This document shows positions 17,650-47,744 of a DNA stretch of 48,406 nt, one piece after another. Location: IMG/VR virus record IMGVR_UViG_2531839448_000004; one strand, given 5' to 3'. Under the pieces are notes generated by a model. It was not told where the DNA came from, searched no databases, and saw nothing but the letters and a program-made list of their open reading frames with translations. A program made the position numbers and the translations under genes. This DNA is from a virus (taxonomy: Duplodnaviria; Heunggongvirae; Uroviricota; Caudoviricetes). Position 1 is the first letter of the stretch. Every line of letters begins with the position of its first letter.

Positions 17650-17689
17650 GGCTGTCAGGCTGTCAGGCTGTCAGGCTGTCAGGCTGTCG
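17650..17689. repeat. Tandem octamer repeat (GGCTGTCA) x4 plus one variant GGCTGTCG, just upstream of the cosN-like sequence
   Basis: Directly visible: ggctgtca ggctgtca ggctgtca ggctgtca ggctgtcg. Confidence 0.9.
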
Positions 17690-27105: not shown

Positions 27106-27443
27106 CGCGGGAAATGCAGTTTGTCATGCGGCTTGCCCGGGAGTTCCGGCGGGCAGACTGGCGGCGGATGCTGTCGGAAATGTCGGCCACTGAGCTTGGT
27201 GAGTGGGGTGATTATTTCCGGATGCAGAGCTTCAGTGATGTGTGGATGGATGCGCAGTTTGCCTCGCTGAAGGCATTGATCGTGAGAATGGTGTCCGGCA
27301 GCAGTGATGCTGCGGTGGCTGATTTCAGCCTTTTACCGGAAGAGAACGGGATACCGGAGCGAACGGACGAAGAACTGATGCATCTTGGGGAAGGTATTTC
27401 CGGAGGTGTGCGTTATGGACCAGATAGCCAACCTGGTCATTGA
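27096..27443 (+). CDS. gpT-like segment, expected to be made only as a G-T fusion by -1 frameshifting near the end of G
   Basis: Open -1 frame overlapping the G terminus; A-rich slip-prone sequence CCGGAAAAG at 27091-27099 just before the G stop (27103-27105). Confidence 0.6.
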   Translation, partial: KVLTREMQFVMRLAREFRRADWRRMLSEMSATELGEWGDYFRMQSFSDVWMDAQFASLKALIVRMVSGSSDAAVADFSLLPEENGIPERTDEELMHLGEGISGGVRYGPDSQPGH

Positions 27444-30400
27444 TTTGGGGATTGATGCGGCAGAGTTTAAAAATGAAATTCCCCGTATCAAAAACCTTCT
27501 GAATGGTGCAGCCAGCGATGCAGAACGGTCTTCTGCCCGTATGCAGCGTTTTATGGAGCGTCAGACTCAGGCCGCCCGGCAGACAACGCAGGCAGCTTCT
27601 TCGGCTGCAACAGCCGCATCCGTCCATACGCAGACGGTGGAGAAGAACGCACAGGCTCATGAACGCATGGCCCGCGAGGTGGAGAAAACCCGCCAGCGCA
27701 TGGAGGCACTGAGTCAGAAAATGCGCGAGGAACAGGCGCAGGCCATGGCTCTGGCGGAGGCTCAGGATAAAGCGGCTGCTGCGTTTTATCGTCAGATTGA
27801 CAGTGTGAAACAGGCCAGTGCGGGGCTGCAGGAATTACAGCGTATTCAGCAGCAGATCCGACAGGCCAGAAACAGTGGCGGGATTGGTCAGCAGGATTAT
27901 CTGGCGCTGATTTCTGAGGTTACTGCGAAAACCCGTGTTCTTACACAGGCTGAGGAAGAGGCTACCCGACAGAAAGTGGCGTTTATCCGTCAGCTTAAAG
28001 AGCAGGCAACCCGCCTGAATCTTTCATCTTCTGAGTTGCTTCGTGCTAAGGCAGCCCAGCTGGGGGTAAGCAGTGCTGCAGAAGTGTATATCCGCAAAAT
28101 GGAGCAGGCAGGAAAAGCCACGCATTCGCTGGGTCTGAAAAGTGCAGCAGCCCGCCAGGAGATAGGCGTTCTGATAGGTGAACTGGCCCGCGGCAATTTA
28201 GGGGCGCTGAGGGGATCCGGGATAACGCTGGCTAACCGTGCCGGATGGATAGACACACTGATGTCACCGAAAGGCATGATGCTTGGCTGGGTTATTGGCG
28301 GTATTGCCGCGGCCGTCTATGGTCTGGGTAAAGCCTGGTATGACGGTCAGAAGGAGGGGGAAGAATTTAACCGCCAGTTGTCGCTGACGGGGCATTATGC
28401 CGGAGTCACTGCCGGGCAGCTGTGGACGCTCAGTCGTGCTATTTCCGGGAATGGTATCACGCAACATGCTGCAGCCGGTGCGCTGGCTCAGGTGGTGGGG
28501 AGTGGTGCATTTCGTGGAAACGATATCGGTATGGTGGCGAGAGCTGCCGCACAGATGGAGCGATCGGTTGGCCAGTCGGTCAGCGATACCATAAATCAGT
28601 TTAAGCGGCTGAAGGATGATCCTGTAAATGCCGCGAAGGCTCTGGACAATGAGCTGCATTTTCTTACTGCCACTCAGCTTGAGCAGATACGCGTCCTTGG
28701 GGAACAGGGGCGGTCCAGTGATGCGGCACGGATAGCCATGTCTGCACTGGCAGAGGAAACCGGTCGGCGTACTGCGGATATTGATAATAACCTCAATGCG
28801 CTGGGCAGTACGCTGAAGTATCTGTCTGATTTATGGAGTCGTTTCTGGGATGCGGCCATGAATATTGGTCGTGAAGACTCGCTGGATGAACAGATTTCCG
28901 CTTTACAGGAGAAAGTGTCGCGGGCGAAAAGACTCCCCTGGACGGCATCATCTTCTCAGGTTGAGTACGATCAGCAGCGTCTTAACGAGCTTCAGGAGAA
29001 AAAACGCCAGAAGGATTTGCAGGATGCAAAAGAGCAGGCAGAGCGGAATTATCAGGAGCAACAGAAACGCCGTAATGCTGAAAATGCTGCACTGAACCGG
29101 ATGAATGAAACGGAAGCAGCACGACATCAGCGTGAAATTGCGCGTATTAATGCCATGCAGTACGCCGATCAGGCTGTCAGGGATGCGGCGATACAACGTG
29201 AAAATGAACGTTACGAGAAAGCCCTGGCATCCGGTAAGAAAAAAACACGCGAACCCCGTAATGATGAGGCCACCCGGTTATTGCTGCAGTACAGTCAGCA
29301 ACAGGCACAGGTGGAAGGACAGATTGCTGCTGCCAGACAGTCAGCAGGCATTGCCACGGAAAGGATGACAGAAGCGCATAAACAGCTTCTGGCTCTGCAA
29401 CAGCGCATCAGCGACCTGGACGGGAAAAAACTGACGGCAGATGAAAAGAGTGTGCTGGCCCGTAAAGACGAACTGATTCAGGCACTGACGCTGCTGGATG
29501 TAAAACAGCAGGAGCTTCAGAAACAGACGGCACTCAACGAGCTGAAGAAAAAACAATTCAGCTGACCAGTCAACTGGCTGAAGAAGAGCGCGCTCAGCGT
29601 CAGCAACATGACCTGGATATCGCCACGGTGGGTATGGGTGATCAGCAGCGGCAGCGATATCAGGTACAACTGAGTCTTCGCCAGAAATACCAGCAACAGC
29701 TGGAGCAGTTGAGGCGGGATAGTGAGCAGAAAGGAACATATAACACGGATGACTACAGAAAGGCCGAGCAGGCGCTGACGGAGAGCCTGAACCGACAACT
29801 GAATGAGAATCGCCGTTACTGGCAACAGCTTGAAGTTGTGCAGGGTAACTGGAAAAACGGAGTCCTGCGTGCATTTCAGGATTTTACCGTGGATGCAGAT
29901 AATACGGCAGGAACAGCAGAACAGGTGTTCTCGTCAGCCTTCAGCAACATGGGAAATGGCCTGGCAACTTTTGTCACTACCGGCAAACTCAATTTCAAAT
30001 CCTTCACCTCTTCTGTGCTGTCAGATATGGCGAAAATCCTGGCGCAGGCAACCATGATGAAATCGATAAAAGGGATTGGCAGTGTACTGGGATTTGATCT
30101 CAGCAGCCTTTCCCTGAATGCCAATGGGGGATTTATCAGTCTGCTGATTTGAGTCGTTACAGTGGCACGGTGGTTAACCGTCCGACGTTTTTTGCTTTTG
30201 CAAAAGGCGCGGGTGTGATGGGGGAAGCGGGACCTGAAGCCATTCTGCCTCTGCGTCGTGGTGCTGACGGTAAGCTGGGGGTTGTGGCCGATATTGGTGG
30301 TTCAGGTATGGCGATGTTTGCCCCGCAGTACAACATCGAGATCAATAACGATGGCACGAACGGGCAGATAGGTCCGGCTGCCCTGAAGGTGGTTTATGAC

Positions 30401-30478
30401 CTTGGGAAAAAAGCGGCAGCGGACTTTATGCAACAGCAGGCCCGTGATGGTGGTCGGTTAAGTGGAGCATATCGGTAA
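27415..30478 (+). CDS. Tape measure protein gpH-like, interrupted by two frame changes (segments 27415-29565, 29628-30152, 30149-30478)
   Basis: N-terminus MDQIANLVIDLGIDAAEF (lambda H: VGDLVVDLSLDAARF); C-terminal segment ...NIEINNDGTNGQIGPAALKVVYDL matches the lambda H C-terminus; frame changes at the A6 tract 29548-29553 and the G5 tract 30126-30130. Confidence 0.75.
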
Positions 30479-32893: not shown

Positions 32894-35800
32894 ATGGGTA
32901 AAGGCAGCAGTAAGGGGCATACCCCGCGCGAAGCAAAGGACAACCTGAAGTCCACGCAGTTGCTGAGTGTGATCGATGCCATCAGCGAAGGGCCGATTGA
33001 AGGTCCGGTGGATGGATTAAAAAGCGTGCTGCTGAACAGTACACCGGTGCTGGACAGTGAGAGGAATACTAACATCTCCGGTGTCACGGTGGTGTTCCGG
33101 GCAGGTGAGCAGGAACAGACACCGCCGGAGGGATTTGAATCATCAGGTTCCGAGACGGTACTGGGTACGGAAGTGAAATACGACACGCCGATCACCCGGA
33201 CCATCACGTCGGCAAACATTGACCGTCTGCGCTTTACCTTCGGTGTGCAGGCACTGGTGGAAACCACCTCAAAGGGGGACAGGAATCCGTCGGAAGTCCG
33301 CCTGCTGGTTCAGATACAACGTAACGGTGGCTGGGTGACGGAAAAAGACATCACCATTAAGGGCAAAACCACCTCGCAGTATCTGGCCTCGGTAGTGGTG
33401 GATAACCTGCCGCCGCGCCCGTTTAATATCCGGATGCGCAGGATGACGCCGGACAGCACCACAGACCAGCTGCAGAACAAAACGCTCTGGTCGTCATACA
33501 CCGAAATCATCGATGTGAAACAGTGCTACCCGAACACGGCACTGGTCGGCGTGCAGGTGGATTCGGAGCAGTTCGGCAGCCAGCAGGTGAGCCGTAATTA
33601 TCATCTGCGCGGGCGTATTCTGCAGGTGCCGTCGAACTATAACCCGCAGACGCGGCAATACAGCGGTATCTGGGACGGAACGTTTAAGCCAGCATACAGC
33701 AATAACATGGCCTGGTGTCTGTGGGATATGCTGACCCATCCACGCTACGGCATGGGGAAACGTCTCGGTGCGGCGGATGTGGACAAATGGGCGCTGTATG
33801 TCATCGGCCAGTACTGCGACCAGTCAGTGCCGGACGGCTTTGGCGGCACGGAGCCGCGCATCACCTGTAATGCGTACCTGACCACACAGCGCAAGGCGTG
33901 GGATGTGCTCAGTGATTTCTGCTCGGCGATGCGCTGTATGCCGGTATGGAACGGGCAGACGCTGACGTTCGTGCAGGACCGGCCGTCGGATAAGGTGTGG
34001 ACCTATAACCGCAGTAATGTGGTGATGCCGGATGATGGCGCGCCGTTCCGCTACAGCTTCAGCGCCCTCAAGGACCGCCATAATGCCGTTGAGGTGAACT
34101 GGATTGACCCGGATAACGGCTGGGAGACGGCGACAGAGCTTGTGGAGGACACGCAGGCCATTGCCCGTTACGGTCGTAACGTCACGAAGATGGATGCCTT
34201 TGGCTGTACCAGCCGGGGGCAGGCACACCGCGCCGGGCTGTGGCTGATTAAAACGGAGCTGCTGGAAACGCAGACCGTGGACTTCAGCGTGGGTGCCGAA
34301 GGGCTTCGCCATGTACCGGGCGATGTCATTGAAATCTGTGATGATGACTATGCCGGTATCAGCACCGGCGGGCGCGTGCTGGCGGTGAACAGCCAGACCC
34401 GGACGCTGACGCTCGACCGTGAAATCACGCTGCCATCCTCCGGTACCACGCTGATAAGCCTGGTTGACGGAAGTGGCAATCCGGTCAGCGTGGAGGTCCA
34501 GTCCGTCACCGACGGCGTGAAGGTAAAAGTGAGCCGTGTTCCTGACGGCGTTGCCGGATACAGCGTGTGGGGGCTGAAGCTGCCGACGCTGCGCCAGCGC
34601 CTGTTCCGCTGCGTGAGTATCCGTGAGAACGATGACGGTACGTATGCCATCACTGCCGTGCAGCATGTACCGGAAAAAGAAGCCATCGTGGATAACGGGG
34701 CGCACTTTGACGGCGACCAGAGCGACACGGTGAATGGTGTCACGCCGCCAGCAGTGCAGCACCTGACTGCCGAAGTCACCGCAGACAGTGGGGAGTATCA
34801 GGTACTGGCCCGCTGGGATACGCCGAAGGTGGTGAAGGGCGTGAGCTTCATGCTTCGCCTGACCGTGGCAGCGGATGACGGCAGTGAGCGGCTGGTCAGC
34901 ACGGCCCGGACGGCGGAAACCACATACCGCTTCAGGCAGCTGGCGCTGGGGAACTACAGGCTGACAGTCCGGGCAGTAAATGCGTGGGGACAGCAGGGCG
35001 ATCCGGCATCGGTATCGTTCCGGATTGCCGCACCGGCAGCGCCGTCGCAGATTGAGCTGACACCGGGGTATTTTCAGATAACCGCCACGCCGCATCTTGC
35101 GGTTTATGATCCGACGGTACAGTTTGAGTTCTGGTTCTCGGAAACGCGGATTACCGATATCAGGCAGGTTGAAACCACAGCCCGCTACCTTGGCACGGGG
35201 CTGTACTGGATAGCCGCCAGTATCAATATCAAACCGGGCCATGATTATTACTTTTATATCCGCAGTGTGAACACCGTTGGCAAATCGGCATTCGTGGAGG
35301 CCGTCGGTCGGGCGAGCGATGATGCGGAAGGTTACCTGGATTTTTTCAAAGGCAAGATAACCGAATCCCATCTCGGTAAAGGGCTGCTGGAAAAAGTCGA
35401 CCTGACGGAAGATAACGCCAGCAGACTGGATCAGTTTTCGAAAGAGTGGAAAGACGCCAACGATAAATGGAATGCCATGTGGGGCGTCAAAATTGAGCAG
35501 ACCGAAGACGGTAAGCATTATGTCGCGGGACTTGGCCTCAGCATGGAGGATACAGAGGAAGGCAAACTGAGCCAGTTTCTGGTTGCCGCTAACCGTATCG
35601 CGTTTATTGACCCGGCAAACGGGAATGAAACGCCGATGTTTGTGGCGCAGGGCAACCAGATATTCATGAACGAAGTGTTCCTGAAACGCCTGACGGCCCC
35701 CACCATTACCAGTGGTGGAAATCCACCGGTATTTTCCCTGACACCGGACGGAAAGCTGACCGCTAAAAATGCGGATATCAGTGGCAGTGTGAATGCGAAC

Positions 35801-36307
35801 TCCGGGACGCTCAACAACGTCACGATAAATGAAAACTGTACGATTAAGGGTATGCTGGAGGCGAATCAGGTCAGAGGTGATTTTGTTAAAACAGTATCCA
35901 AATCATTCCCGAAAAAGGCTGGTACGTGGGGTAACACGGAAACACCAGACGGGACGGTTACAGTCACCATCAGCGATGATCATAACTTTGACCGTCAAAT
36001 CATTATTCCGCCCATTATCTTTAACGGTATAGCGTATGACGATCCGGGAAGTGGTGATAACCCGGGAGGTACAAGGTACACGGGGTATGGTTTTGAAGTT
36101 CGCAAAAACGGCGTATTAATCGCATCCAGAGAAACTAAAGGGGCCATTCCCGGTAGTTACAGTGCGGTTATTGATATGCCGAGTGGCAGGGGAAGCGTCA
36201 CTCTGGAGTTTAAGATTTTCCAGAAAGGCAATCAGGGGGCAGGCAATATCACCGACTGTACGGTGATTGTGACCAAAAAGGCTGCTTCCGGCATCAGTAT
36301 TCGTTGA
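32894..36307 (+). CDS. Host-specificity protein / central tail fibre gpJ-like
   Basis: 1137 aa; position after I; lambda-J-like N-terminus. Confidence 0.92.
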
Positions 36308-36377: not shown

Positions 36378-36977
36378 ATGCGTAAAGTTTGTGCAGCCAT
36401 TTTGTCCGCAGCCATCTGTCTGGTCGTATCCGGTGCGCCTGCATGGGCGTCTGAACATCAGTCCACGCTGAGCGCGGGGTATCTTCATGCCTCGACGAAC
36501 GTTCCCGGCAGCGATGATCTTAACGGGATTAACGTGAAATACCGTTATGAGTTTACGGACACGCTGGGGATGGTGACGTCATTCAGCTATGCAGAAGACA
36601 AGAATCGCCAGCTGACTCATTACAGCGATACCCGCTGGCATGAAGATTCCGTGCGTAACCGCTGGTTCAGCGTGATGGCGGGGCCGTCTGTGCGCGTGAA
36701 TGAATGGTTCAGCGCGTATGCGATGGCGGGTGTGGCTTACAGCCGTATTTCGACTTTCTCCGGGGATTATCTCCGCGTAACTGACAACAAGGGGAAAACG
36801 CACGAAGTGCTGACCGGAAGTGATGACGGTCGCCGCAGCAACACGTCTCTGGCGTGGGGGGCTGGCGTGCAGTTTAACCCGACCGAATCCGTGGCCATTG
36901 ATATTGTTTATGAAGGCTCCGGCAGTGGCGACTGGCGCACTGACGGTTTCATCGTGGGTGTCGGTTATAAGTTCTGA
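36378..36977 (+). CDS. lom: Lom outer-membrane protein (Ail/Lom family)
   Basis: Signal peptide MRKVCAAILSAAICLVVSGAPAWA; beta-barrel pattern; C-terminal ...GVGYKF. Confidence 0.9.
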   Translation: MRKVCAAILSAAICLVVSGAPAWASEHQSTLSAGYLHASTNVPGSDDLNGINVKYRYEFTDTLGMVTSFSYAEDKNRQLTHYSDTRWHEDSVRNRWFSVMAGPSVRVNEWFSAYAMAGVAYSRISTFSGDYLRVTDNKGKTHEVLTGSDDGRRSNTSLAWGAGVQFNPTESVAIDIVYEGSGSGDWRTDGFIVGVGYKF

Positions 36978-37003
36978 TTAGCCAGGTAACACAGTGTTAT
37001 GAC

Positions 37004-37031
37004 AGCCCGCCGGTTCAGGCGGGCTTTTTTG
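37004..37031 (+). terminator. Intrinsic terminator after lom
   Basis: AGCCCGCCggttcaGGCGGGCTtttttg. Confidence 0.75.
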
Positions 37032-37041
37032 TGGGGTGAAT

Positions 37042-40000
37042 ATGGCAGTAAAGATTTCAGGTGTACTGAAAGACGGTGCAGGTAAACCGGTACAGAACTG
37101 CACAATCCAGCTGAAAGCAAAACGTAACAGCACCACGGTGGTGGTGAACACGCTGGCATCTGAAAATCCGGATGAAGCAGGGCGTTACAGCATGGACGTT
37201 GAGTACGGTCAGTACAGCGTTATTCTGTTGGTGGAAGGATTCCCGCCGTCACATGCCGGGACCATCACAGTGTATGAAGATTCCCGACCCGGTACGCTGA
37301 ATGATTTTCTCGGTGCCATGACGGAGGATGATGCCCGTCCGGAGGCACTGCGCCGTTTTGAGCTGATGGTGGAGGAGGTGGCGCGTAACGCGTCCGTGGT
37401 GGCACAGAACACGGCAGCCGCGAAGAAGTCAGCCAGTGATGCCAGCACATCAGCCCGTGAGGCGGCAACCCATGCGACTGATGCTGCAGGCTCAGCACGC
37501 GCAGCCAGCACGTCAGCCGGACAGGCCGCGTCGTCGGCTCAGTCAGCGTCTTCCAGCGCAGGAACGGCATCAACAAAGGCCAGTGAAGCATCGAAAAGTG
37601 CTGCTGCTGCAGAGTCCTCAAAAAGCGCGGCGGCCACCAGTGCCGGTGCGGCGAAAACGTCAGAAACGAATGCGGCAGCGTCACAACAATCAGCCGCCAC
37701 TTCTGCATCCACCGCGACCACGAAAGCGTCAGAAGCTGCCACCTCAGCCCGGGATGCGGCGGCCTCAAAAGAGGCAGCGAAATCATCAGAAACGAACGCA
37801 TCATCAAGTGCCAGTAGTGCAGCTTCCTCGGCAACGGCGGCAGGAAATTCCGCGAAGGCCGCAAAAACGTCTGAGACGAATGCAGATAACAGCGCACAGG
37901 CGGCAGCGGCCTCACAAACTGCATCGGCAAACTCCGCGACAGCAGCCAAAAAATCAGAAACCAACGCGAAAAATAGCGAGGCAGCAGCAAAGAGCAGCGA
38001 AACAAACGCTAAAGCCAGCGAAACTAATGCTAAATCCAGTGAAACAAACGCGGCGAAATCTGCGGCGGACGCACTTAATTATCGCAACCAGGCGCAAGTA
38101 ATTGTAGGCGATAATATCGGTCTTGGCTCAGCACCGCGTGATTGTCCTGATATTTCCGGCAACCCATCAGGGTATATCGGATTTATGCGCATTATGAGTA
38201 ATGCAAAAGGCTTTCCATCGATTGCATCCGGTGAAAGCAGTCTTACGGGGTTTATTAGTCAGGTAGATGGAACACCAGCGTATACAGGTGTATTTCAGGG
38301 ATGGGCTACGCGCTCGCTTTATACTTATCGCTGGAATCCGACAATAGGCCCGCAGTGGACGCGTCACGCAAGAAAAGATGAAGTGGACAGGCTTACTCAA
38401 CTAACAGGTAATACACGCGTATATTGTCAAAATGCAAGCAAATTTTTTGGTATCTACGATTCAGGAACATGGGGTTATTACGATGCAGAGAATAGCGAAT
38501 GGATTCCGCTTTCGATCGCGGCCGGAGGTACTGGTGCGGCAACTATTGATGGTGCCAGAACGAATCTTGGCTTAGGTAGGAACAACAGCCCTCAACTTAA
38601 CAGTCTATTTCTTGATAGATATAGTGATTCGACCAATACATACACATCTAGTGGAATTCTCCATACAAGACTGTTAGCAACTGACAGCACTGTGCGTCTT
38701 GGTGCTGATATGTATGTTGAGACTTTATCAAATGAGCCAGGTCAATTAACAATAAGGTTTACATACGATGGTTCAACTGGTGCTTCAAAATATCTAAACC
38801 TTAACTCAGAAGGTAATTTAATTGTAGATAGTGCGATACTGAGATCAACGGTTGAAAAACCTTTACAAATAAGGAGCGCTAACCCAGCAATAAGATTTAA
38901 TGAAACAGATCGCCCGGCTAACACGCCTACTTATACTCTCATTGCTAATGCTGGCGACTGGTTTATTCAGAAACGCGATTATGATGATGCCGGAAGCGTT
39001 AGTAACGCAATTGCATATAATTTCGCAAACGACAGAATTGATGTGCAAAATCTTAAAGCGTCTGGGTTAATTACAGCTAACTCAGGAATCGCAACATTAA
39101 CAGGTCATGACTGGAACTCTCAGCATACTGATAACGTCGACAAATTTAGACCAATCGCAGGCAGTACAAACGGCCCGGCAGGCTCTATGGTTCTTGGCGG
39201 CATTCATGTTCAATTTAGTAAAAATTATGCTGTGCAGTTCGGAGGCCGCAATTCCGGTTTTTGGGGAAGAACAATTGAAAATGGAACGACGCAGGAATGG
39301 AAGAAATTACTAACAGTAGACGATCTCAATTCATCTACCGATCTTGCTGTCAGGTCATTAACCACATCTAACCCGGTAAAATCTGGCGGAGGGCGAATTG
39401 ATGTCCTTGGAAGCACGTCAGACTATAGCAAAATGGATTGCTTTGTACGTGGGTTTGATAGCACCGGTAATTCTCTCGCGTGGGCGTTGGGTTCATCAGT
39501 CGGCGTAAGTAAGATGCTGTCGCTAAAAAATTTCTTTAGCGGAGCTGAGATACTGCTAAATGGTAATGACGGCGCGGTTCAACTCAAAACAGGTGCTGTT
39601 AACGGGGCTAAAGCGCAGGCGCTCACTATCAACAAGGATGAGGTTAACTCAACTGTTGATTTAACTCTTACAAAACAAACAGGGACTGGAAATCGTTTTG
39701 TTTTACAGAACTTAGGTAATACAGAACTATCATTTGCCGCAAAAGTATGGGGATCAAGTGATCGACAAAACGTTTTTGAGGTTGGAACGTCTGCTGCGTA
39801 TCTGTTTTATGCGCAAAAAACGTCAGCAGGCCAGTTGTTTGATGTAAATGGCGCTATTAATTGCACAACGCTGAATCAGTCATCAGACCGCGACCTTAAA
39901 GACGATATTCTCGTTATCAGCGACGCGACGAAAGCAATCCGTAAAATGAACGGATACACCTACACGCTCAAGGAAAACGGGATGCCTTATGCTGGCGTTA

Positions 40001-40317
40001 TTGCACAGGAAGTAATGGAGGCGATACCAGAAGCTGTGGGATCGTTTACTCATTATGGTGAAGAGTTGCAAGGTCCGACCGTTGACGGCAACGAGCTACG
40101 CGAAGAAACTCGCTATCTTAATGTTGACTACTCCGCCGTGACGGGTTTACTTGTTCAGGTCGCCCGTGAAACAGATGATCGCGTTACCGCGCTGGAAGAG
40201 GAAAACACAACGCTACGTCAAAATCTGGCAACAGCAGGCACCCGGATCAGCACTCTGGAAAATCAGGTAAGCGAACTGGTTGCACTTGTCCGGCAGTTAA
40301 CAGGAAGCGAACATTGA
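37042..40317 (+). CDS. Side tail fibre protein with Ala/Ser-rich repeat collar and C-terminal intramolecular-chaperone (S74-like) domain
   Basis: N-terminus MAVKISGVLKDGAGKPVQNCTIQLKAKRNSTTVV...; C-terminal ...DRDLKDDILVISDATKAIRKMNGYTYTLKENGMPYAGVIAQEV... is chaperone-domain-like. Confidence 0.85.
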   Translation: MAVKISGVLKDGAGKPVQNCTIQLKAKRNSTTVVVNTLASENPDEAGRYSMDVEYGQYSVILLVEGFPPSHAGTITVYEDSRPGTLNDFLGAMTEDDARPEALRRFELMVEEVARNASVVAQNTAAAKKSASDASTSAREAATHATDAAGSARAASTSAGQAASSAQSASSSAGTASTKASEASKSAAAAESSKSAAATSAGAAKTSETNAAASQQSAATSASTATTKASEAATSARDAAASKEAAKSSETNASSSASSAASSATAAGNSAKAAKTSETNADNSAQAAAASQTASANSATAAKKSETNAKNSEAAAKSSETNAKASETNAKSSETNAAKSAADALNYRNQAQVIVGDNIGLGSAPRDCPDISGNPSGYIGFMRIMSNAKGFPSIASGESSLTGFISQVDGTPAYTGVFQGWATRSLYTYRWNPTIGPQWTRHARKDEVDRLTQLTGNTRVYCQNASKFFGIYDSGTWGYYDAENSEWIPLSIAAGGTGAATIDGARTNLGLGRNNSPQLNSLFLDRYSDSTNTYTSSGILHTRLLATDSTVRLGADMYVETLSNEPGQLTIRFTYDGSTGASKYLNLNSEGNLIVDSAILRSTVEKPLQIRSANPAIRFNETDRPANTPTYTLIANAGDWFIQKRDYDDAGSVSNAIAYNFANDRIDVQNLKASGLITANSGIATLTGHDWNSQHTDNVDKFRPIAGSTNGPAGSMVLGGIHVQFSKNYAVQFGGRNSGFWGRTIENGTTQEWKKLLTVDDLNSSTDLAVRSLTTSNPVKSGGGRIDVLGSTSDYSKMDCFVRGFDSTGNSLAWALGSSVGVSKMLSLKNFFSGAEILLNGNDGAVQLKTGAVNGAKAQALTINKDEVNSTVDLTLTKQTGTGNRFVLQNLGNTELSFAAKVWGSSDRQNVFEVGTSAAYLFYAQKTSAGQLFDVNGAINCTTLNQSSDRDLKDDILVISDATKAIRKMNGYTYTLKENGMPYAGVIAQEVMEAIPEAVGSFTHYGEELQGPTVDGNELREETRYLNVDYSAVTGLLVQVARETDDRVTALEEENTTLRQNLATAGTRISTLENQVSELVALVRQLTGSEH
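37600..38060 (+). repeat. In-frame tandem repeats encoding reiterated A-K-(S/T)-S-E-T-N-A motifs within the tail-fibre gene
   Basis: Repeated peptide units AAKTSETNAAAS, AKSSETNASSSAS, AKTSETNADNSAQ, KKSETNAKNSEAAAKSSETNAKASETNAKSSETNAAKSA. Confidence 0.8.
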
Positions 40318-40353
40318 TATCCTTCAAGCCCTGAAGGAGGCTGTTCCTGGTAC

Positions 40354-40488
40354 GTTCAGACTGTTGCTGAGCTGGAGATCGCAACGGAGGAAGAGAAAGC
40401 GTTTCTGGCCGCATGGAAAACATATCGGGTATTGCTGAACCGTGTTGATACAGTAAACCCCGTCTGGCCTCCACCTTCGAAGCGATAG
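40354..40488 (+). pseudogene. Tail-fibre assembly (Tfa) C-terminal remnant
   Basis: Reads [43 protein letters not shown], resembling conserved Tfa C-termini; no start codon and no N-terminal part; in frame directly after the stf stop. Confidence 0.6.
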
Positions 40489-40792
40489 CCCAGCAACTCC
40501 TAAATAGCTGCGCATAATACCGCTACACCTGCCGTTTTACTGACATTTGGAATATTGCGTGAGGGCAACATATCGAGGGGCAGATACAGCTCGGTCAAAT
40601 AGAAAAACAGCCCCACTATTTACCATGCAATAGCTGGTCAAAAGGAGAGCACTATTCCGCTCCGCGTAGTATTTTGTGTTTATAGTGATAACTTAGGTAA
40701 TGCTTAGTCACTAAGATACTTTGCTATTGGAGAGCGATTTATAATGTGGGCGCAACAGATTTTTACTATTGCGCCACTTGCTCTTGTGAGTA

Positions 40793-41881
40793 CTATTCGC
40801 TATAAGTTAATGTTGGTTTTGAAAGTCTTTTGGATATTGTTTTTCCGATATTAATGAATGGAGTTTCAATATATTTATAAATAAAGAATGATAAGAACAA
40901 GCTAAGAGCAATAATGAATGAAAACTTAGAGAACCCAGGTTTTTCATAAAGCGGAATGAAATCCTTAAAATTAATTAAAAATAGCATTACTATCGCATGG
41001 GATAAATACAGAGAGTAAGAGATATCACCTAGCTTACTGAGTATTTTATTTTCCCTTAATCCGAAGTTAACTTCATAAAGTAAAACTCCCGTAATTATGG
41101 AGGCTGCCCACAATCCGAAGTTTAAAGGGCCATGACCAAATCTGAATTGATAAAAATATGAGCAAACACCAAATGAAACCAAAAGGAATGATATCGCCTT
41201 TGCGTTTTTTATATATTTAAATTTTCTGTGTATTATATACAGAAACATCCCATAAACGAATTCTAACAGCATGGGTGATGACATTAAGTTTAGAAAGCCA
41301 ATATGCCAATGACCTGTATCACCAATCGTAAACTTACTTGATAGAGAAAGGCTGTTGGAAAATTTCAACTGTATGAGAAGTAGCGGGACTATCAATGCAA
41401 TAACTGATATTAATAATCTGTTTTTATGACTCAGCGATATTGCAAGCATAAAAATGAAATAAAAATAGACTTCAAAGGTTAATGTCCATGCTGGATAAAG
41501 CACGTTGTATCCGAAGAATGGCGCTTCTGAATAATAGTCCAGGTGAAGCAGAAACAATGAACGCAATAATTCACTTTCGGTGAAGACTGGGTTCAATAAA
41601 AAGAATAAGATTGTGCAAATGAAAAATACAGGGTAAATCCTGAAAAAACGCCTGGTCATAAAGTTAATAGGGGAATTTGTTTCTTTTTTTTGACTCGATA
41701 ACATTATTATAAATCCACTTATAATAAAAAACAGATCAACCCCAAAACCACCACTAATAAACAATAAATCACCTAGATCTTTTTGTGCGTAAACTTCATT
41801 TAGGTATTGTTTATTGTGATATGCAACAACGAGTAATGCTGCTACACCTCGCAAATAGTGAATTGATTTTACCTTCTTCAT
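40793..41881 (-). CDS. Acyltransferase-3 family membrane protein (OafA/Oac-like O-antigen acetyltransferase candidate)
   Basis: 362 aa, polytopic, markedly AT-rich; N-terminal YLRGVAALLVVAYH motif typical of acyltransferase-3 proteins. Confidence 0.75.
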   Translation of the reverse strand: MKKVKSIHYLRGVAALLVVAYHNKQYLNEVYAQKDLGDLLFISGGFGVDLFFIISGFIIMLSSQKKETNSPINFMTRRFFRIYPVFFICTILFFLLNPVFTESELLRSLFLLHLDYYSEAPFFGYNVLYPAWTLTFEVYFYFIFMLAISLSHKNRLLISVIALIVPLLLIQLKFSNSLSLSSKFTIGDTGHWHIGFLNLMSSPMLLEFVYGMFLYIIHRKFKYIKNAKAISFLLVSFGVCSYFYQFRFGHGPLNFGLWAASIITGVLLYEVNFGLRENKILSKLGDISYSLYLSHAIVMLFLINFKDFIPLYEKPGFSKFSFIIALSLFLSFFIYKYIETPFINIGKTISKRLSKPTLTYSE

Positions 41882-42319
41882 TTTTATATAATCACTGTTC
41901 CAATTTTTTTATTTTACAAACAATTCTATCTAGCTCATTAGTACTCAAAGTCAGATTGGTAGCAATAAAAAAACAAGATATGTGATGACATGGCGCGGGG
42001 CTCAGAACCACTCGTGTATTTTCGCCACTGGCTATGACTGGCTGCACCTGCAAGATCTGCCATTTGTGTGCCAGTATACCCAAGCTCTGACTTTATGTTT
42101 ACCAGATCCTCTGGAGTGCCGGGGAGTATAATCGTTGATTAATCGAATCTGCAACTATTTCAGAACGACCTAGGTTAAAGTGCGCTCTGCAGTCTCTTAT
42201 ATAAGGTGATACTTTAATTGTCTGGAAACTGGACAGGTTAGGAAGGAGCAGGAAACATCTTATTATACTTACCGAGTAGCTGCGGGTAAGGGGGGGATTT
42301 CCGTAGCCTGACAGGTAAC

Positions 42320-42594
42320 ATTGACACGTCAACATCGATGGTTTTTTTTATTTTTCCATGTGATGGAGCCCTGGTTGAAATGAAGCGTGAACTGATTGAT
42401 GACTGAACAAAAGTTGGACTGGAAGATGCTCGCGCACAGGGAGGAATTGGTGGACGTCGTCCTAAACTTACATCAGAACAATGGGCGCAGGCCGGGCGAT
42501 TAATTGCATCAAAAGTCCCGCGTCAGAAGGTGGCGATCATCTATGATATTGGTGTATCGACTTTGTATAAGAGGTTTCCAGCCAGGATTATATA
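42320..42594 (+). pseudogene. Decayed C-terminal fragment of a Pin/Hin-family serine DNA invertase
   Basis: Frames give ...GALVEMKRELIDD* then ...GGIGGRRPKLTSEQWAQAGRLIASKVPRQKVAIIYDIGVSTLYKRFPARII*, matching the invertase C-terminal HTH region, with in-frame stops and frame changes; catalytic N-terminus absent. Confidence 0.65.
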
Positions 42595-42918
42595 AAACTG
42601 CAGACACGCCGTATGCAAGACGTGCTGCGGTTGGTTGATGCACTTTCGAGAGTGTATGTATTGAATAATTTCCAACCGTCATTAATTTTATTTATTTTTT
42701 GCATGAGAGGATTTGAACCTCCGAGCCTCGACACCTTATGACAACGCGATATTCCCTTGATGACCGCTATGCGCCAAAATAACCAATTGATAAATAAGTT
42801 GATTTTAATTGGTTGGAAGCAAGTCAGGTCAAATTCAGCATGCCGCTCTCTGTATCGGGTAGTTAAATTTTTCTATAACTGATAGTAATATGTTAAAACT
42901 CACACAGATAAATTATCA

Positions 42919-44901
42919 TTGCTCAACAAGTATAATGGAGTTCCCGTGGATACAGCAGAACATGATGGCAAATTTGCTTGGGCTAGTTTTTATGAGGCTT
43001 TTGCCAACGCGTTACTGACTTGGCGAAATCGTAGAGATGAATTAGTCAAAGGTATTCATCTAATTGCCTCAGGTGTGGAAGGAATGTCCCATCTGCAGGA
43101 CAAATCTATTATGGGAGAGATCTTTCCCTTAAAAGACATTTGTCCGTTTACTACTATGGGCTTGTTCAATCGTAACTTGACCGACAGCAATCGCAAAATT
43201 ATTGCTGCCAAGCTAGCGAATTTGTTGGGCGTGAACGAACCGATTCCTGACTCCTTTGCCGGAATCCCGCTGTTGAATAACCAAAAATCTTGGTTCTTTG
43301 GTTATGAAAAGTCACGCGACCCTAATGACATTGAATGCTTGTGGGAAATGTTCTCGCAGGCAATGACCTTTGCGGATAACCAGAATACTAACTCTGCAGA
43401 CTTCACTGCCGCATATGACATCGCTTCTACAGTAATGAATGTCGGTTGGAATCTCACCATGGGGTTGTACTGGACCCGTCCTTGGTTCTACCCTACTTTA
43501 GATAGCCAGTCGCAGTATTACATTCAGACAGTGTTAAACATTAAGATCATTAAAAACGGGGCAAAAGGTCGCTGTAGTGGACAAAGTTACCTGAGTCTTA
43601 TGCGGGCGCTGAACGAGGTCTTTACCCAACCAAACTATCCGGTTCATTCTTTCCCAGAACTTTCTTTATCAGCGTGGAATACAGATCTTAGCCAGTCTAA
43701 AGATGAGGTGGCAAATAGAACGTGGAAAGCCTCTTTACTGAATAAAATTAAGGCGTTATGCCTGAAAAAAAATGGCCCTTATTTCACTGCTTCGGAGTTG
43801 GAAGAAAACTACTTGGACGTATTCAAGGTAGAGCATCCTGAGAGCAAAACAGTTACAAGCTCAATCTACTTTTATCTACAGAAACTATGCAATGATGATG
43901 AGTTAAAGTCCCTTGAGTCCGGAAATTATGAATACCTGAATTTTGAGAAAAACGAATCCCAGACGATAACTGAGGAAACTGTCGAAGAGAGTGCGCCGTT
44001 GCCAAAACTCACTCACGTTCCTTATGACATCAGTCATCTGGTGCAGGATGGCTGTTTCTTGGAAGAGGCTAAGATCCAACTCACACTTCAGCGCCTGATC
44101 GACAAGAAAAACCTGATATTACAAGGACCACCCGGAACTGGAAAAACCTGGTTAGCGCGACGTCTGGCGTACTGCTTGATGGGAGAAAAAGCACCTGAGC
44201 GTATTAGCGCGGTGCAATTTCACCCGAACCTCTCTTACGAAGACTTTATTCGCGGCTGGCGTCCAGGTAAAGAAGGGCAATTGACGCTAATTGATGGACC
44301 TTTTGTAAATGCAATCAAAACTGCAGTCAATAATCCTACCTCGAAATATGTGGTGATAATTGAAGAGATTAATCGTGGCAATCCGGCGCAAATCTTCGGT
44401 GAAACACTCACGTTGATGGAAGCAGATAAACGCACGCCGACTGAGGCATTATCTCTTTCCTATCCTAAAAATGATGATGAAAAAATATACATTCCTGAGA
44501 ATCTATATATCATCGGTACGATGAATATTGCAGACCGCTCACTCGCACTACTTGACCTAGCGCTGCGCCGTCGTTTCGCGTTTATCGATCTAAAGCCAGC
44601 TTTTAATGACGCGTGGAGAAACTGGGTAAATTATAATTACGCAATTGATTTTGACATGTTAGCATTCATCAAATCTCGACTGACGGTACTTAACGATATG
44701 CTGGCAAAAGATGTTACCTTAGGACCACAGTTTTGTATCGGTCACAGCTATGTCACCCCAGCTATCGGCCAAAAAATCAACGATGCCCAGGCTTGGTATG
44801 AACAAGTCGTTGATACAGAGATCTGCCCTTTGCTCGCCGAATATTGGTTCGATGCTCCAAATAAAGTCGATGAAGCCAGAAAAGTGTTATTAGCAAAATG
44901 A
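42919..44901 (+). CDS. McrB-like AAA+ GTPase with a long (~400 aa) N-terminal region of unrecognised type; start codon uncertain (TTG 42919 or GTG 42946)
   Basis: C-terminal motifs LILQGPPGTGKTW, VVIIEEINRGNPAQIFGETLTLMEADKR, YIIGTMNIADRSLALLDLALRRRFAF match the McrB GTPase family; ATGA overlap with the downstream McrC-like gene. Confidence 0.75.
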   Translation: MLNKYNGVPVDTAEHDGKFAWASFYEAFANALLTWRNRRDELVKGIHLIASGVEGMSHLQDKSIMGEIFPLKDICPFTTMGLFNRNLTDSNRKIIAAKLANLLGVNEPIPDSFAGIPLLNNQKSWFFGYEKSRDPNDIECLWEMFSQAMTFADNQNTNSADFTAAYDIASTVMNVGWNLTMGLYWTRPWFYPTLDSQSQYYIQTVLNIKIIKNGAKGRCSGQSYLSLMRALNEVFTQPNYPVHSFPELSLSAWNTDLSQSKDEVANRTWKASLLNKIKALCLKKNGPYFTASELEENYLDVFKVEHPESKTVTSSIYFYLQKLCNDDELKSLESGNYEYLNFEKNESQTITEETVEESAPLPKLTHVPYDISHLVQDGCFLEEAKIQLTLQRLIDKKNLILQGPPGTGKTWLARRLAYCLMGEKAPERISAVQFHPNLSYEDFIRGWRPGKEGQLTLIDGPFVNAIKTAVNNPTSKYVVIIEEINRGNPAQIFGETLTLMEADKRTPTEALSLSYPKNDDEKIYIPENLYIIGTMNIADRSLALLDLALRRRFAFIDLKPAFNDAWRNWVNYNYAIDFDMLAFIKSRLTVLNDMLAKDVTLGPQFCIGHSYVTPAIGQKINDAQAWYEQVVDTEICPLLAEYWFDAPNKVDEARKVLLAK

Positions 44902-46018
44902 CGACAATAACCGGGAGTGAGCAACATACAGCATCACGTATTCCCATGCGAAATATCTGGATGCTGATGCTGTACGCTTCAGATCTGTTTCGTCAGTTAG
45001 GGCGCAATCAGATCGCAGTAGAAGATAACCCAGCAGAAATCCCCGACCTGGTGGCGACAATCCTCCTTCATGAGATTACGCTGCGCCGACGTCGCAATTT
45101 AAATATGGGATACCAAACTTGTCATGCGGCCCTGAACCGGGTGAGAGGGCGCATTGACATACTGTATACTGCCAGTCATCAACTACTGGAACGGGGACAG
45201 GTTGCCTGCCATTTTCAAGACATAACCCTCAACACCCCCCGAAATCGCTATGTTCGCTGTGCGTTAGAACGTCTGGCCTCAATCATAGTGAAACCGTCTT
45301 TGGCGGCAGATTGCCATTTTATGGCAATATCACTTCGCCGTGAGGGGATAAATGGAGGATATCCTGCCCCCACGAATTACCCTCAGTGTGGCGTTTTGGA
45401 CGCCATGATGCCGCAGATAAACCGATGGTCGATGCCGCACGATTAGCTTTTGAACTGCTGATGCCGACCGAAGATCAAGGCCAATATCTTTTACCTGCGC
45501 CCTCAAATAACCTTTACTGGATGAGAAGACTATTTGAAAAAGGTATCGCTGGCTTATATCGTGTACACCTTGCCAAAACAACTTGGCAGGTCTCTGCAGG
45601 GAAAGAGCTGAAATGGGCGTTGAGCGATCAAAGTGCAGGTAGTGCAGAGATTTTCCCGACAATGAAGTCAGACATTATTCTGGAACACAAGACTGCCCAG
45701 CGGCGTATTATTATCGATACCAAATTTAATTCGATTCTGACAAAGGGTTGGCATCGGGAGCAATCACTACGTAATGGCTATATTTATCAGCTATATACCT
45801 ACCTTAGAACACAGGAGAACAAGACGGATCCGCTTTCGCTCAATGCCGCTGGTCTTCTACTTCATCCAGCTGTTGGCTATATGCTTAATGAGTATGTTGT
45901 CACTCAGGGACATAAGATCCATTTTGCTACAGTAGATATGACGGTAGATGCTAAAGCAATTAAAAAACAATTGCTGGCAATAGCCCATGATTGTGCAGGA
46001 GTCGCGGTTGATGACTAA
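44898..46018 (+). CDS. McrC-like nuclease subunit, split into two frames (44898-45446 and from about 45344 to 46018)
   Basis: N-terminus ...IPMRNIWMLMLYAS... (McrC: IPVRNIYYMLTYAW); second frame carries the D-x-K nuclease core RIIIDTKF and YIYQLYTYL (McrC: ILIVDAKYY, NLYQLMNYL). Confidence 0.6.
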
Positions 46019-46715
46019 CCATCCTATAAGGCACTGGCTGTAATATAATCAATAGTTTCAATTAAGTAGCTGTTATCCGTGCTTAGTCATCATATGACGC
46101 ACCACGGTCTAATTTTCCTGCTCATACATTGATATATCCTTGTCGAGCCCGGAAAGTCGCAGTCCACTATTAGGTATACCGATTGCCAGCACCAAAAGCT
46201 TCTTTGTAATTATTATATCGGGGAATGCCTATTTTTTAGTGACAATATCAGATAGCAATTAATAAGCGGTGCCGGTAATGGATGTTATGTTTAATGTATA
46301 GATACAGTCATCATAAACTAAACGTCTGTTGTTCGCTCATAACCGACATTTATCTCAGTTATGGAAGATAATTATGTATGCAGATAATGGGGCAGACAGT
46401 CGTGGAGTAAACAAGGTTTTGCACTGATTGGCGGCATCGTTATCTTATTTTTAATTATGTGCCTCTTAACATAAGTTGGGACAAAACAGAGACACATAAG
46501 GTCTCACAAAGGTCTGCAAGGCCTCACATGTATTGAGGTGTTAATAAAATGTAGACTTGTAATTTGGATATAAATGGTAGAGAAAACCTTTCCCCAAAAT
46601 AAAAACGAACGTCAATGAAATCAAACGGTTGAATAAAGTTGATTTTGGCTAATAAAAAACAATAAAATATTTTTATGATTAAATATCAATGACTTGAACT
46701 TAATGTTTTTATATA

Positions 46716-46880
46716 CTGTTACGCCATATGGGTTGGACTGAAGCGGCTGACCTGATTGTTAAAGGTATGGAAGGCGCAATCAATGCCAAGACCGTAACCT
46801 ATGACTTCGAACGTCTGATGGAAGGCGCTAAATTGCTGAAATGTTCAGAGTTTGGTGACGCGATCATCAAGAATATGTAA
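46716..46880 (+). pseudogene. icdC: 3' fragment of isocitrate dehydrogenase gene icd (prophage attR duplication)
   Basis: Translation [54 protein letters not shown] matches the Icd C-terminus; no upstream icd sequence. Confidence 0.8.
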
Positions 46881-46903
46881 TCTCTCCATGTGTTAAATAT
46901 TGA

Positions 46904-46935
46904 AACGGGCGTATAACACGCCCGTTGTTTTATTT
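46904..46935 (+). terminator. icd-type intrinsic terminator
   Basis: AACGGGCGTataacACGCCCGTTgttttattt. Confidence 0.7.
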
Positions 46936-46982
46936 ATGTGGATATTATTAATAGCATATCGAGCATATTTATATAAAACCCT

Positions 46983-47306
46983 TTACTTGAGCCCATATGG
47001 GCATATTTTTATAATGCAACTATTATGCAAACATTTATTTGTTATTTTGCTTTCTCCTGGAGGACACTCTTGACTGCTTTTGAGTAGACTCCATAAATCC
47101 TTGTTGAATGGTGCGATGTTATAAATAGTAATAGGATATTCTTTATCTTTAAGGATAATACCAGATTTAACCGGTTTAAATATACTGCCAGGAGGGAGAA
47201 ATATAGTAGATTGATACCAGATGATCATTTTCATATCACCCCATATGACTGAAAAAGATATACCGCATGTAGGTTGAATTACCGTGTCAATTACTATCCA
47301 CTTCAT
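46983..47306 (-). CDS. iraM: IraM anti-adaptor protein (RpoS stabiliser)
   Basis: [107 protein letters not shown], 107 aa. Confidence 0.88.
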
Positions 47307-47744
47307 TTGTTATGTCTTATCCCACGGTATTTAATATAGTTCATTTGGATATTCATTTCTTTATTTTGCATATGAGTATATTACCCCTTCAAAAAATAAA
47401 TTAATTAAAACGATTGCTTATATAAAACAAAATTTAAAGCAAGGAATCTCAATGGATGTTAAACAAAATGAGATTTAGTGAAAACAATAAATTATTCACT
47501 TCGTTTTAGATTTGTTTAGCTATAATGTTATACATTCAAATGACTGAACATCCTGTAATTAAAACATAGCCTTTATGCTACTTGGTGCCAATTTGCTAAA
47601 CATTATGGTTGCTTTTTTATATAACGATAATAATGAATATAAGCATGACATGAGAATAAGGTTCCAATTTTTGAGTTATATAGGAAAGGTTTAACCTGTT
47701 CCTGGCTAAAATACATATAACTGGATGATGACTAAACCAAAACA

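Follow-up and report, generated by a model that had tools for sequence, protein, structure and literature searches.

The closest described counterpart of the locus reported here is the right end of the E. coli K-12 element e14, in which an invertible stf/tfa segment is followed by pinE, mcrA, icdC and iraM. PinE is intact there (184 aa), and the 1.8-kb invertible segment comprises two inverted pix repeats with a 16-bp core and two convergent stf/tfa sets. PinE, PinQ and PinR have been reported by Kirigo et al. to invert the P segment of e14, blocking phage T2, and PinQ, which is 38% identical to PinE, does so in trans (PMC12529663). Gin of Mu, Cin of P1 and the invertase of a P2-like prophage in strain AST81 belong to the same Din family; the P2-like and Mu-like enzymes are intact and lie beside convergent fibre/tfa cassettes of contractile-tail phages. 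PinQ and PinR, encoded by the Qin and Rac prophages, are serine recombinases found beside stf/tfa in lambdoid prophages.

The window, i.e. the whole 48.4-kb stretch of DNA that was analysed, covers most of a lambdoid prophage, which is integrated in icd of E. coli, and the adjoining chromosome: positions 46714–47396 are 95.5% identical to the K-12 sequence from icdC through iraM, and relatives of the prophage carry icd and the integrase at their left end. The gene map of the right end was compiled from the RefSeq annotation of near-identical loci, the listing of open reading frames and Pfam. In this right end, at 42148–42595 on the plus strand, lies what is, to judge by its homology, a broken Pin-type DNA invertase pseudogene of the Din family (Pin/Gin/Cin/Hin), equivalent to PinE residues 36–184 plus the stop codon. 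Our main reading, to which we assign a probability of roughly 85%, is that this is a dead, truncated invertase gene and that no switch is present at the locus.

The assignment to the Din family is borne out by several searches. A tblastn search with K-12 PinE finds a single significant locus in the window (E 3e-49), which is split over two frames: PinE residues 36–84 match 42148–42294 in frame +1 with 65% identity, and residues 84–181 match 42290–42583 in frame +2 with 76% identity, the frame +2 part as a whole extending over 42290–42592 up to the terminal stop codon TAA at 42593–42595. The stitched translation is recognized by the Pfam family Resolvase (PF00239, E 3.3e-21, 76 bits against a cutoff of 23.3) over profile positions 43–144 of 145, by HTH_7 (PF02796, E 1.1e-12, 48 bits against a cutoff of 23.8) over positions 1–44 of 45, and by PHROG 125 ‘DNA invertase’ (E 1.2e-49). 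A custom invertase HMM built from 96 full-length relatives, with which all frames were searched with the filters switched off, covers the remnant at HMM positions 36–84 and 86–182. The decayed Pin/Hin-type invertase which the original prediction had placed at 42320–42594 is thus found, and the fragment does align to serine recombinases through both its Resolvase and HTH_7 parts. The further claim that only the C-terminal DNA-binding part is left does not hold, as the homology begins at 42148 with residue 36, two thirds of the catalytic domain are recognizable, and so are four fifths of the gene.

The reading frame is interrupted by three nonsense codons, TAA at 42202–42204, TAG at 42277–42279 and TGA at 42404–42406. 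At least three frame changes are found in addition, a count which is uncertain by one or two, the window being a single assembly with probable homopolymer errors. The first frame change, from frame +1 to +2, coincides with a G7 run at 42290–42296 (located by regular expression), where the two tblastn segments abut; the run had been described as lying at 42288–42295 just upstream of the remnant, whereas it is in fact situated inside the pseudogene. A second lesion is a T8 run at 42342–42349 with a +1 shift, offset by a -1 shift near 42365, and the FFHVM motif between the two shifts is read in the third frame, in which LFFHVME was found. In-frame stops and frame changes had also been foreseen, and the TGA and the +1/-1 pair account for them, with more lesions of the same kind further upstream. 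The uninterrupted frame of about 180–200 codons that is expected of a Din invertase is absent.

The first 105 nt of the gene are missing. Codons 1–35 were not recovered by DNA alignment, the score of which was reached by 137 of 500 shuffled sequences, nor by the unfiltered profile HMM search of all frames, which gave no match to HMM positions 1–35, nor by a frameshift-tolerant alignment with a home-made aligner, where 76–78 of 100 shuffles reached the score. Consequently, the N-terminal catalytic serine motif (YxRVST, at about residue 10) is lacking. In hin and gin the Fis-dependent recombinational enhancer is located in the 5′ part of the invertase gene, and at least part of it would have been lost along with these codons. 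The DNA-binding part of a Din invertase is still represented by the HTH_7 domain, and its frame is open from 42407 to 42592 on the plus strand; a stand-alone helix-turn-helix peptide translated after the TGA was considered and ruled out, as this frame contains no start codon giving an ORF of at least 30 aa. Since the first approximately 35 codons including the catalytic serine are gone and the rest is interrupted by stops and frame changes, the remnant cannot make a recombinase.

Homopolymer lengths differ among relatives, which carry G7 or G8 and, at the second run, T7 (strain S30), T8 or T9 (strain AR_0369). Three other single-base homopolymer deletions relative to close relatives are present in long genes of the window, two in the tape-measure gene (near 29547 and 30125) and one in mcrC (near 45366); the tape-measure gene, too, is split by frameshifts. 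Run lengths in the window are accordingly not reliable to the single base. It might be argued that slippage in the G and T runs restores the frame, as in a phase-variable invertase, or that the frameshifts are assembly errors and the gene is still usable, and both the strain-to-strain variation in run length and the resemblance of the other deletions to long-read errors would agree with this. Against it stand the three nonsense codons, which are of the substitution type and, like the truncation, independent of homopolymer errors, the absent catalytic N-terminus, the absence of target sites described below, and the fact that the lesions are common to about 239 independently sequenced genomes, all of which carry PGAP pseudogenes at this place. 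The nonsense codons and the missing catalytic end exclude a phase-variable or functional gene, and the chance that the gene is usable after all is next to nil.

Among 5426 complete E. coli genomes the same pseudogene is found at an identity of at least 99% in about 239. In strains such as S30, WCHEC020031, AR_0369 and others PGAP labels it ‘recombinase family protein; frameshifted; internal stop; incomplete; missing N-terminus’ with an extent equivalent to 42148–42594. The pseudogene as such is therefore ordinary and already known, being annotated by RefSeq in hundreds of genomes; this annotation describes the same feature and the same extent but gives no history, subfamily or mosaic structure, and what is added here is the corrected extent, the mosaic structure and the finding that the neighboring tfa remnant is part of the fibre module and not of a lost switch. 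Intact copies of this pin allele were looked for in the 5426 complete E. coli genomes, among 50,697 phage records and in 5.8 billion collected proteins, and none was found; in the protein collection the best intact relatives are PinE alleles with 75–78% protein identity. Further lesions are seen in individual carriers: a 1-nt deletion at 42406 in WCHEC020031, an ISEc60 inserted inside the remnant in RMDEC332, and in about 210 genomes an IS1 that abuts at 41914, with the whole late region deleted. The decay of the remnant is thus still under way, and it appears to drift neutrally at present.

The comparison with intact invertases points to a mosaic gene with a breakpoint near 42340. The 5′ segment (42148–42340), which contains the TAA and the TAG, has a foreign codon usage, and over 42148–42294 it is only 54% identical to pinE at the nucleotide level and 68% at the amino acid level (pS 0.99, pN 0.26), a pattern of old divergence under purifying selection. 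The 3′ segment (42350–42592), which comprises the end of the E-helix and the HTH_7 domain and contains the TGA, is 85% identical to pinE in nucleotides with pS 0.25, pN 0.12 and an omega of about 0.4, a pattern of recent common ancestry followed by relaxed constraint. Compared with different pinE alleles its nucleotide identity is about 85–88%, the closest being pinE of FORC_081 (88%), with which it has the C-terminal FPAR(V/I)I in common. The 5′ and middle segments, i.e. the 5′ two-thirds of the remnant, are in turn nearest in DNA to the invertase of the P2-like prophage of AST81, with 75–84% identity; a high-identity donor of the 5′ segment was not found, no E. coli donor exceeding this value. 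The gene would accordingly consist of a 5′ part of the type found in P2-like prophages, representing a divergent invertase lineage, and a 3′ part of the pinE type. The position of the breakpoint also explains why Pin had at first been recognized only from about 42320 onwards.

Several features are shared by the remnant and PinE. Both belong to the same family, with 85–88% identity in DNA for the 3′ part and 68–85% in protein depending on the segment; both occupy the same site at the right end of an icd-inserted element and the same strand relative to the fibre genes, and in both a cargo gene for methylation-dependent restriction lies between pin and attR. The differences are that PinE of e14 is intact whereas here codons 1–35 are lacking and the rest carries stops and frameshifts, that the pix repeats and the two convergent stf/tfa sets of e14 are absent here, and that the cargo is mcrA in e14 but mcrBC-like here. 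Mu gin aligns to the remnant at about 65%. The proposed comparison with e14 pinE and the Mu gin region therefore bears out the homology of the pin gene, but no similarity to the pix region or to the e14 fibres accompanies it; along the e14 right end only pin and the icd flank are homologous to the window. PinQ and PinR resemble the remnant in their position beside stf/tfa of lambdoid prophages; they belong to another subfamily, however, with a tblastn match of merely 32 residues, PinQ moreover being encoded on the opposite strand relative to stf, and they are not the ancestor of the remnant.

Apart from the remnant, the components of an inversion switch are lacking. A second serine recombinase was detected neither by tblastn with PinE and PinQ nor by HMM over all six frames of the window; an intact invertase with an inverting segment, the finding that would have spoken against a lost switch, is likewise present nowhere else in the window, nor is either one found in the left arms of related prophages. 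The search for gix/hix-like crossover sites gave nothing above chance: allowing up to 3 mismatches, a degenerate 26-bp gix/hix/pix pattern had 5 matches in the whole window against 3.2 expected, none of them paired or flanking a segment, and the e14 repeat TTCTCCCAAACCAA, the core of which was read directly from the e14 sequence and is also given in PMC12529663, had 3 matches against 5.7 expected by chance, which are likewise unpaired and not in plausible positions. The best crossover-like match (40924–40950) has 3 mismatches, is unpaired and lies inside the acyltransferase gene described below, and was rejected. Inverted repeats in 36900–42700 are confined to short chance matches, none of them suitable. 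The spacer at 41882–42147, the place in which to look for invertase codons 1–35, the enhancer and the upstream crossover site, has no recognizable homology and is common to all of the approximately 240 carriers from 41914 rightwards; alignment of the e14 region from pixR through the pinE start codon with 41880–42110 scored below the mean of shuffled sequences, and PHROG scans of the spacer ORFs matched no phage family.

An alternative set of fibre genes is not present either. The Stf and Tfa proteins of e14 and FORC_081 gave no tblastn match in the window, and no fibre or tfa relic was found on the minus strand, a single Stf and a single tfa 3′ remnant being present, both on the plus strand. 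Thus both the paired inverted 26-bp crossover sites and the two oppositely oriented sets of fibre C-terminus and tfa that define an invertible switch are missing. As there are no target sites and no alternative fibre genes, nothing inverts at this locus; an inversion switch cannot function, whether in cis or in trans, and the neighboring fibre gene is fixed in a single orientation. Action of PinQ in trans is excluded in particular, as it needs pix sites, and the mechanism described in PMC12529663 is impossible here for lack of the pix repeats and the stfE/stfP pair on which it depends.

Upstream of the remnant the plus strand carries J (32894–36307), lom (36378–36977) and, at 37036–40317, a lambda-type side tail fibre Stf with a C-terminal S74 chaperone (phage_tail_N E 2.5e-71, Peptidase_S74 E 4.7e-13, PHROG tail fibre). 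It is followed by a 3′ remnant of tfa at 40318–40488 on the same strand, which was identified by BLAST and as a PGAP pseudogene. The sole Rfam match in this analysis, a sub-threshold one to IS009, lies over the tfa remnant and has no bearing on the pin finding. The late genes from 16000 to 40452 match, with 96–98.6% identity, a prophage which strain 20KM2222 carries at its Qin locus; the homology stops at 40452, within the tfa remnant, of which 40318–40452 moves with the S74 Stf module while 40453–40488 is specific to the icd locus. At the Qin locus an intact pinQ, encoded on the opposite strand, comes after the unit of S74 Stf and truncated tfa, and at the attLambda locus of another strain the same unit occurs without any invertase after it. 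S74 fibres (PF13884) fold with their own C-terminal chaperone; a truncated tfa is therefore expected baggage of an S74 Stf module. The original prediction took the tfa remnant as a sign of a lost switch, but since the truncated tfa moves with the S74 Stf at the Qin and attLambda loci as well, it provides no such evidence.

These observations bear on the proposal that the prophage once switched its present stf/tfa by inversion and that this switch decayed in place, the tfa and pin remnants marking its two ends and the host range being frozen. As in e14 and Mu, the pin remnant does lie downstream of stf/tfa on the same strand; behind the locus-specific tfa end at 40453–40488 a gene lies in convergent orientation, in the place expected of an inverted tfa; and intact relatives always flank fibre cassettes. 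In every close intact relative examined the invertase is located directly downstream of tail-fibre/tfa genes, which belong to modules of contractile-tail phages and not to a lambda-type stf. Convergent fibre/tfa pairs are found beside four of them, K-12 e14, FORC_081, phage vB_EcoM-689R6 and AST81, while in strain EC31 a single tfa precedes pinE. Given that the close intact relatives all adjoin fibre/tfa genes, the ancestor of the pin gene almost certainly drove a fibre switch, probably one of the e14/P2 type. The notion of a lost ancestral tail-fibre switch is to this extent sustained for the gene. For the present fibre it is not, as the switches of the relatives serve fibres of the Mu, P2 and e14 type, to which, as to the pix region, there is no similarity here, the remnant being placed beside a lambda-type side fibre and an acyltransferase gene. 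Furthermore, the truncated tfa at 40318–40452 is a fixed companion of the S74 Stf at other loci with or without an invertase, the self-chaperoning of the S74 fibre explains the loss of tfa without a switch, the tape-measure gene is frameshifted in the window, and a sister lineage described below has an intact tfa abutting the downstream linker and no pin. Decay in place is hence regarded as an unlikely history.

Between the tfa remnant and the spacer the minus strand carries an AT-rich cargo gene at 40793–41881 encoding an acyltransferase of the O-acetyltransferase type (Acyl_transf_3 E 2.6e-34, PHROG O-acetyltransferase E 5e-71). The acyltransferase block has a GC content of 26–37%, the AT-rich stretch extending from 40700 to 41975, and it was found, in 29 complete genomes, at this locus only; a donor was not found in E. 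coli genomes outside the locus, and the species representatives of GTDB contain no close relative. The whole interval 40489–42147 corresponds in position and rough size to the inverted tfa/fibre genes, crossover site and pin 5′ end of e14.

The pin stop is immediately followed by a linker of about 125 bp (42596–42722), here termed X, which is present in 4746 of the 5426 genomes and in other prophages comes after pinE or after tfa, intact in either case. A tRNA-like string at 42700–42760 was considered as a tRNA fragment and dismissed, as it is called by neither ARAGORN nor Rfam. The segment behind X contains a defence cargo on the plus strand, an McrB-like AAA_5 ATPase and McrC at 42919–46018 (Pfam AAA_5 and McrBC, PGAP mcrC), in which the window's mcrC is split near 45366, where a C run lacks 1 nt. 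EC31 has an e14-like prophage in which the intact pinE precedes X and a homologue of 46373–46540 begins 46 nt beyond it, the cassette 42723–46372 being absent between X and the att arm. From this order of pinE, X and att arm in EC31 it follows that X and the att arm delimit a cargo slot, filled here by the mcrBC-like cassette and in K-12 e14 by mcrA. In the icd-integrating lambdoid phage 4A7 the corresponding cargo region contains sitABCD. The right end of the prophage, attR, is marked by the displaced icd 3′ fragment at 46714–46882 on the plus strand (95% identity to the K-12 icdC region, PGAP pseudogene), after which iraM is encoded on the minus strand.

A sister lineage at the icd locus, represented by about 50 genomes, has stf, an intact tfa, X and mcrBC, with a cassette 97–99% identical to that of the window, and carries neither pin nor the acyltransferase. 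Owing to this lineage a past switch in the present lambdoid lineage cannot be polarized: the pattern fits either a gain of the acyltransferase and pin-remnant segment in the lineage of the window or its clean loss in the sister, and import of the remnant becomes at least as likely as a switch within the lineage. In the former case the remnant would never have served this phage but would be a passenger from an e14-like prophage or a P2-like myovirus prophage, imported truncated or truncated soon afterwards through the shared tfa 3′ end on the left and X on the right. Such an exchange agrees with the widespread occurrence of X behind both an intact pinE (EC31) and an intact tfa (the sister lambdoid lineage), with the restriction of the acyltransferase and pin-remnant segment to this locus, and with the foreign codon usage of the 5′ segment and its want of a closer E. 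coli donor. On the other hand, pin, X, cargo and att arm are collinear with the right ends of e14-like elements, so that the gene could be native to the side of the integration module, and no donor with an acyltransferase beside pin was found. Import is accordingly put forward as a possibility that falls clearly short of probable.

It was also considered whether the pin remnant, mcrBC and the icd fragment might be the right end of an older e14-like element, next to which the lambdoid prophage integrated later in tandem. e14 and lambdoid phages do share the attB in icd, their integrases being 60% identical, and about 240 genomes have kept this right end, with the remainder of the prophage variable or deleted. 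The attR-proximal arm at 46464–46720, however, matches free icd-integrating lambdoid phages such as 4A7 and not K-12 e14, and no second att or icd fragment was found between the fibre genes and the pin remnant, there being one icd match only. A tandem arrangement is therefore considered very improbable.

The order of events which accommodates these data best starts from the backbone that is collinear with the EC31 prophage (pinE, X and the homologue of 46373–46540). The pin gene would have sat, as in e14-like elements, in a series of fibre cassette, pin, X, cargo slot and att arm. The AT-rich O-acetyltransferase cassette would then have taken the place of the segment with the inverted fibre/tfa genes, the crossover site and the beginning of pin, and, as a separate event, a late module with an S74 Stf, which needs no Tfa and had the truncated tfa in tow, would have been swapped in, probably through a recombination event near 40452, in the conserved 3′ end of tfa. 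This sequence of events is tentative, and we give it somewhat less than even odds.

For the prophage itself the consequences are mostly negative ones. The pseudogene alone matters little, its practical value being the evidence that a working fibre-inversion switch is absent: the prophage offers no sites on which PinE, PinQ or PinR from other prophages could act in trans, and the recombinase-activated anti-phage mechanism of e14 (PMC12529663) cannot work from this locus. The locus is, at the same time, a small and clean example of how the right arms of prophages turn over their cargo, here an S74 fibre with truncated tfa, an acyltransferase and an mcrBC-like system. It is conceivable, though doubtful, that the remnant is a datable scar of module exchange between contractile-tailed e14/P2-like elements and lambdoid prophages through the tfa 3′ end and the approximately 125-bp X, and that the right arm in icd constitutes a persistent cargo slot composed of X, cargo and att arm. 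If this were true, defence genes (mcrA, mcrBC-like) and conversion genes (O-acetyltransferase, sitABCD) would be swapped in the slot while the phage bodies come and go, and the pin pseudogene would be a passive marker of this traffic rather than a functional part.

Two recombination junctions are located at and shortly after the end of the tail-fibre gene stf, at 40317/40318 and 40452/40453, the first lying between stf and the directly following tfa remnant, which is the 3′ part of a tail-fibre assembly gene (40318-40488). In strain AR_0369 a deletion of 36542-40316 begins inside lom and runs precisely up to the stop codon of stf, and in prophages at the Qin locus homology with the window stops at 40452, within the conserved 3′ end of tfa. 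The tfa remnant is also overlapped by a match to the Rfam family IS009 (40300-40457), which at 62.9 bits stays below the gathering score of 117 and probably reflects tfa-derived sequence in the seed of that family.

Downstream of the pin remnant, a dead serine invertase gene, follows the intergenic element X (42596-42722, about 125 bp). Of 5426 E. coli genomes, 4746 carry it, with a median of two copies per genome, and it is placed after tfa in some prophages and after pinE in others; X looks like a linker at module boundaries. A string resembling a tRNA T-arm plus 3′ acceptor end, GGAGGTTCAAATCCTCTCATGCA, is found on the minus strand at 42700-42760, at the left edge of the adjoining mcrBC-like cassette, and is called as a tRNA by neither ARAGORN nor Rfam.

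This cassette (42723-46372) is cargo between X and the att arm, the attR-proximal right end, and is carried by about 290 complete E. coli genomes. In the e14 prophage of K-12 the same slot is filled by mcrA instead, and the e14-like prophage of EC31 leaves it empty. The McrB-like protein (AAA_5, 660 aa) possesses a long N-terminal domain. In the window mcrC (44898-46018) is frameshifted into two ORFs, 44898-45446 and 45386-46018, because a C5 run at 45362-45366 replaces the C6 of three relatives; the gene is unbroken in S30, WCHEC020031 and AR_0369.

The tape-measure gene (27385-30478) is split into three ORFs by two single-base homopolymer deletions at 29547 and 30125 (A6 versus A7 and G5 versus G6 in a 98.6%-identical prophage), which represent either a genuine defect or long-read assembly errors. 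Upstream of the terminase genes, the 8-nt unit GGCTGTCA occurs in two additional tandem copies at 17650-17665 (16 nt in total) compared with the closest relative.

On the minus strand at 40793-41881 resides an AT-rich gene (26-37% GC) of the O-acetyltransferase type with an Acyl_transf_3 domain. No close relative was found among the GTDB species representatives, and the 29 complete genomes harboring the gene contain it at the icd locus only. The gene is probably foreign and probably acts in lysogenic conversion.
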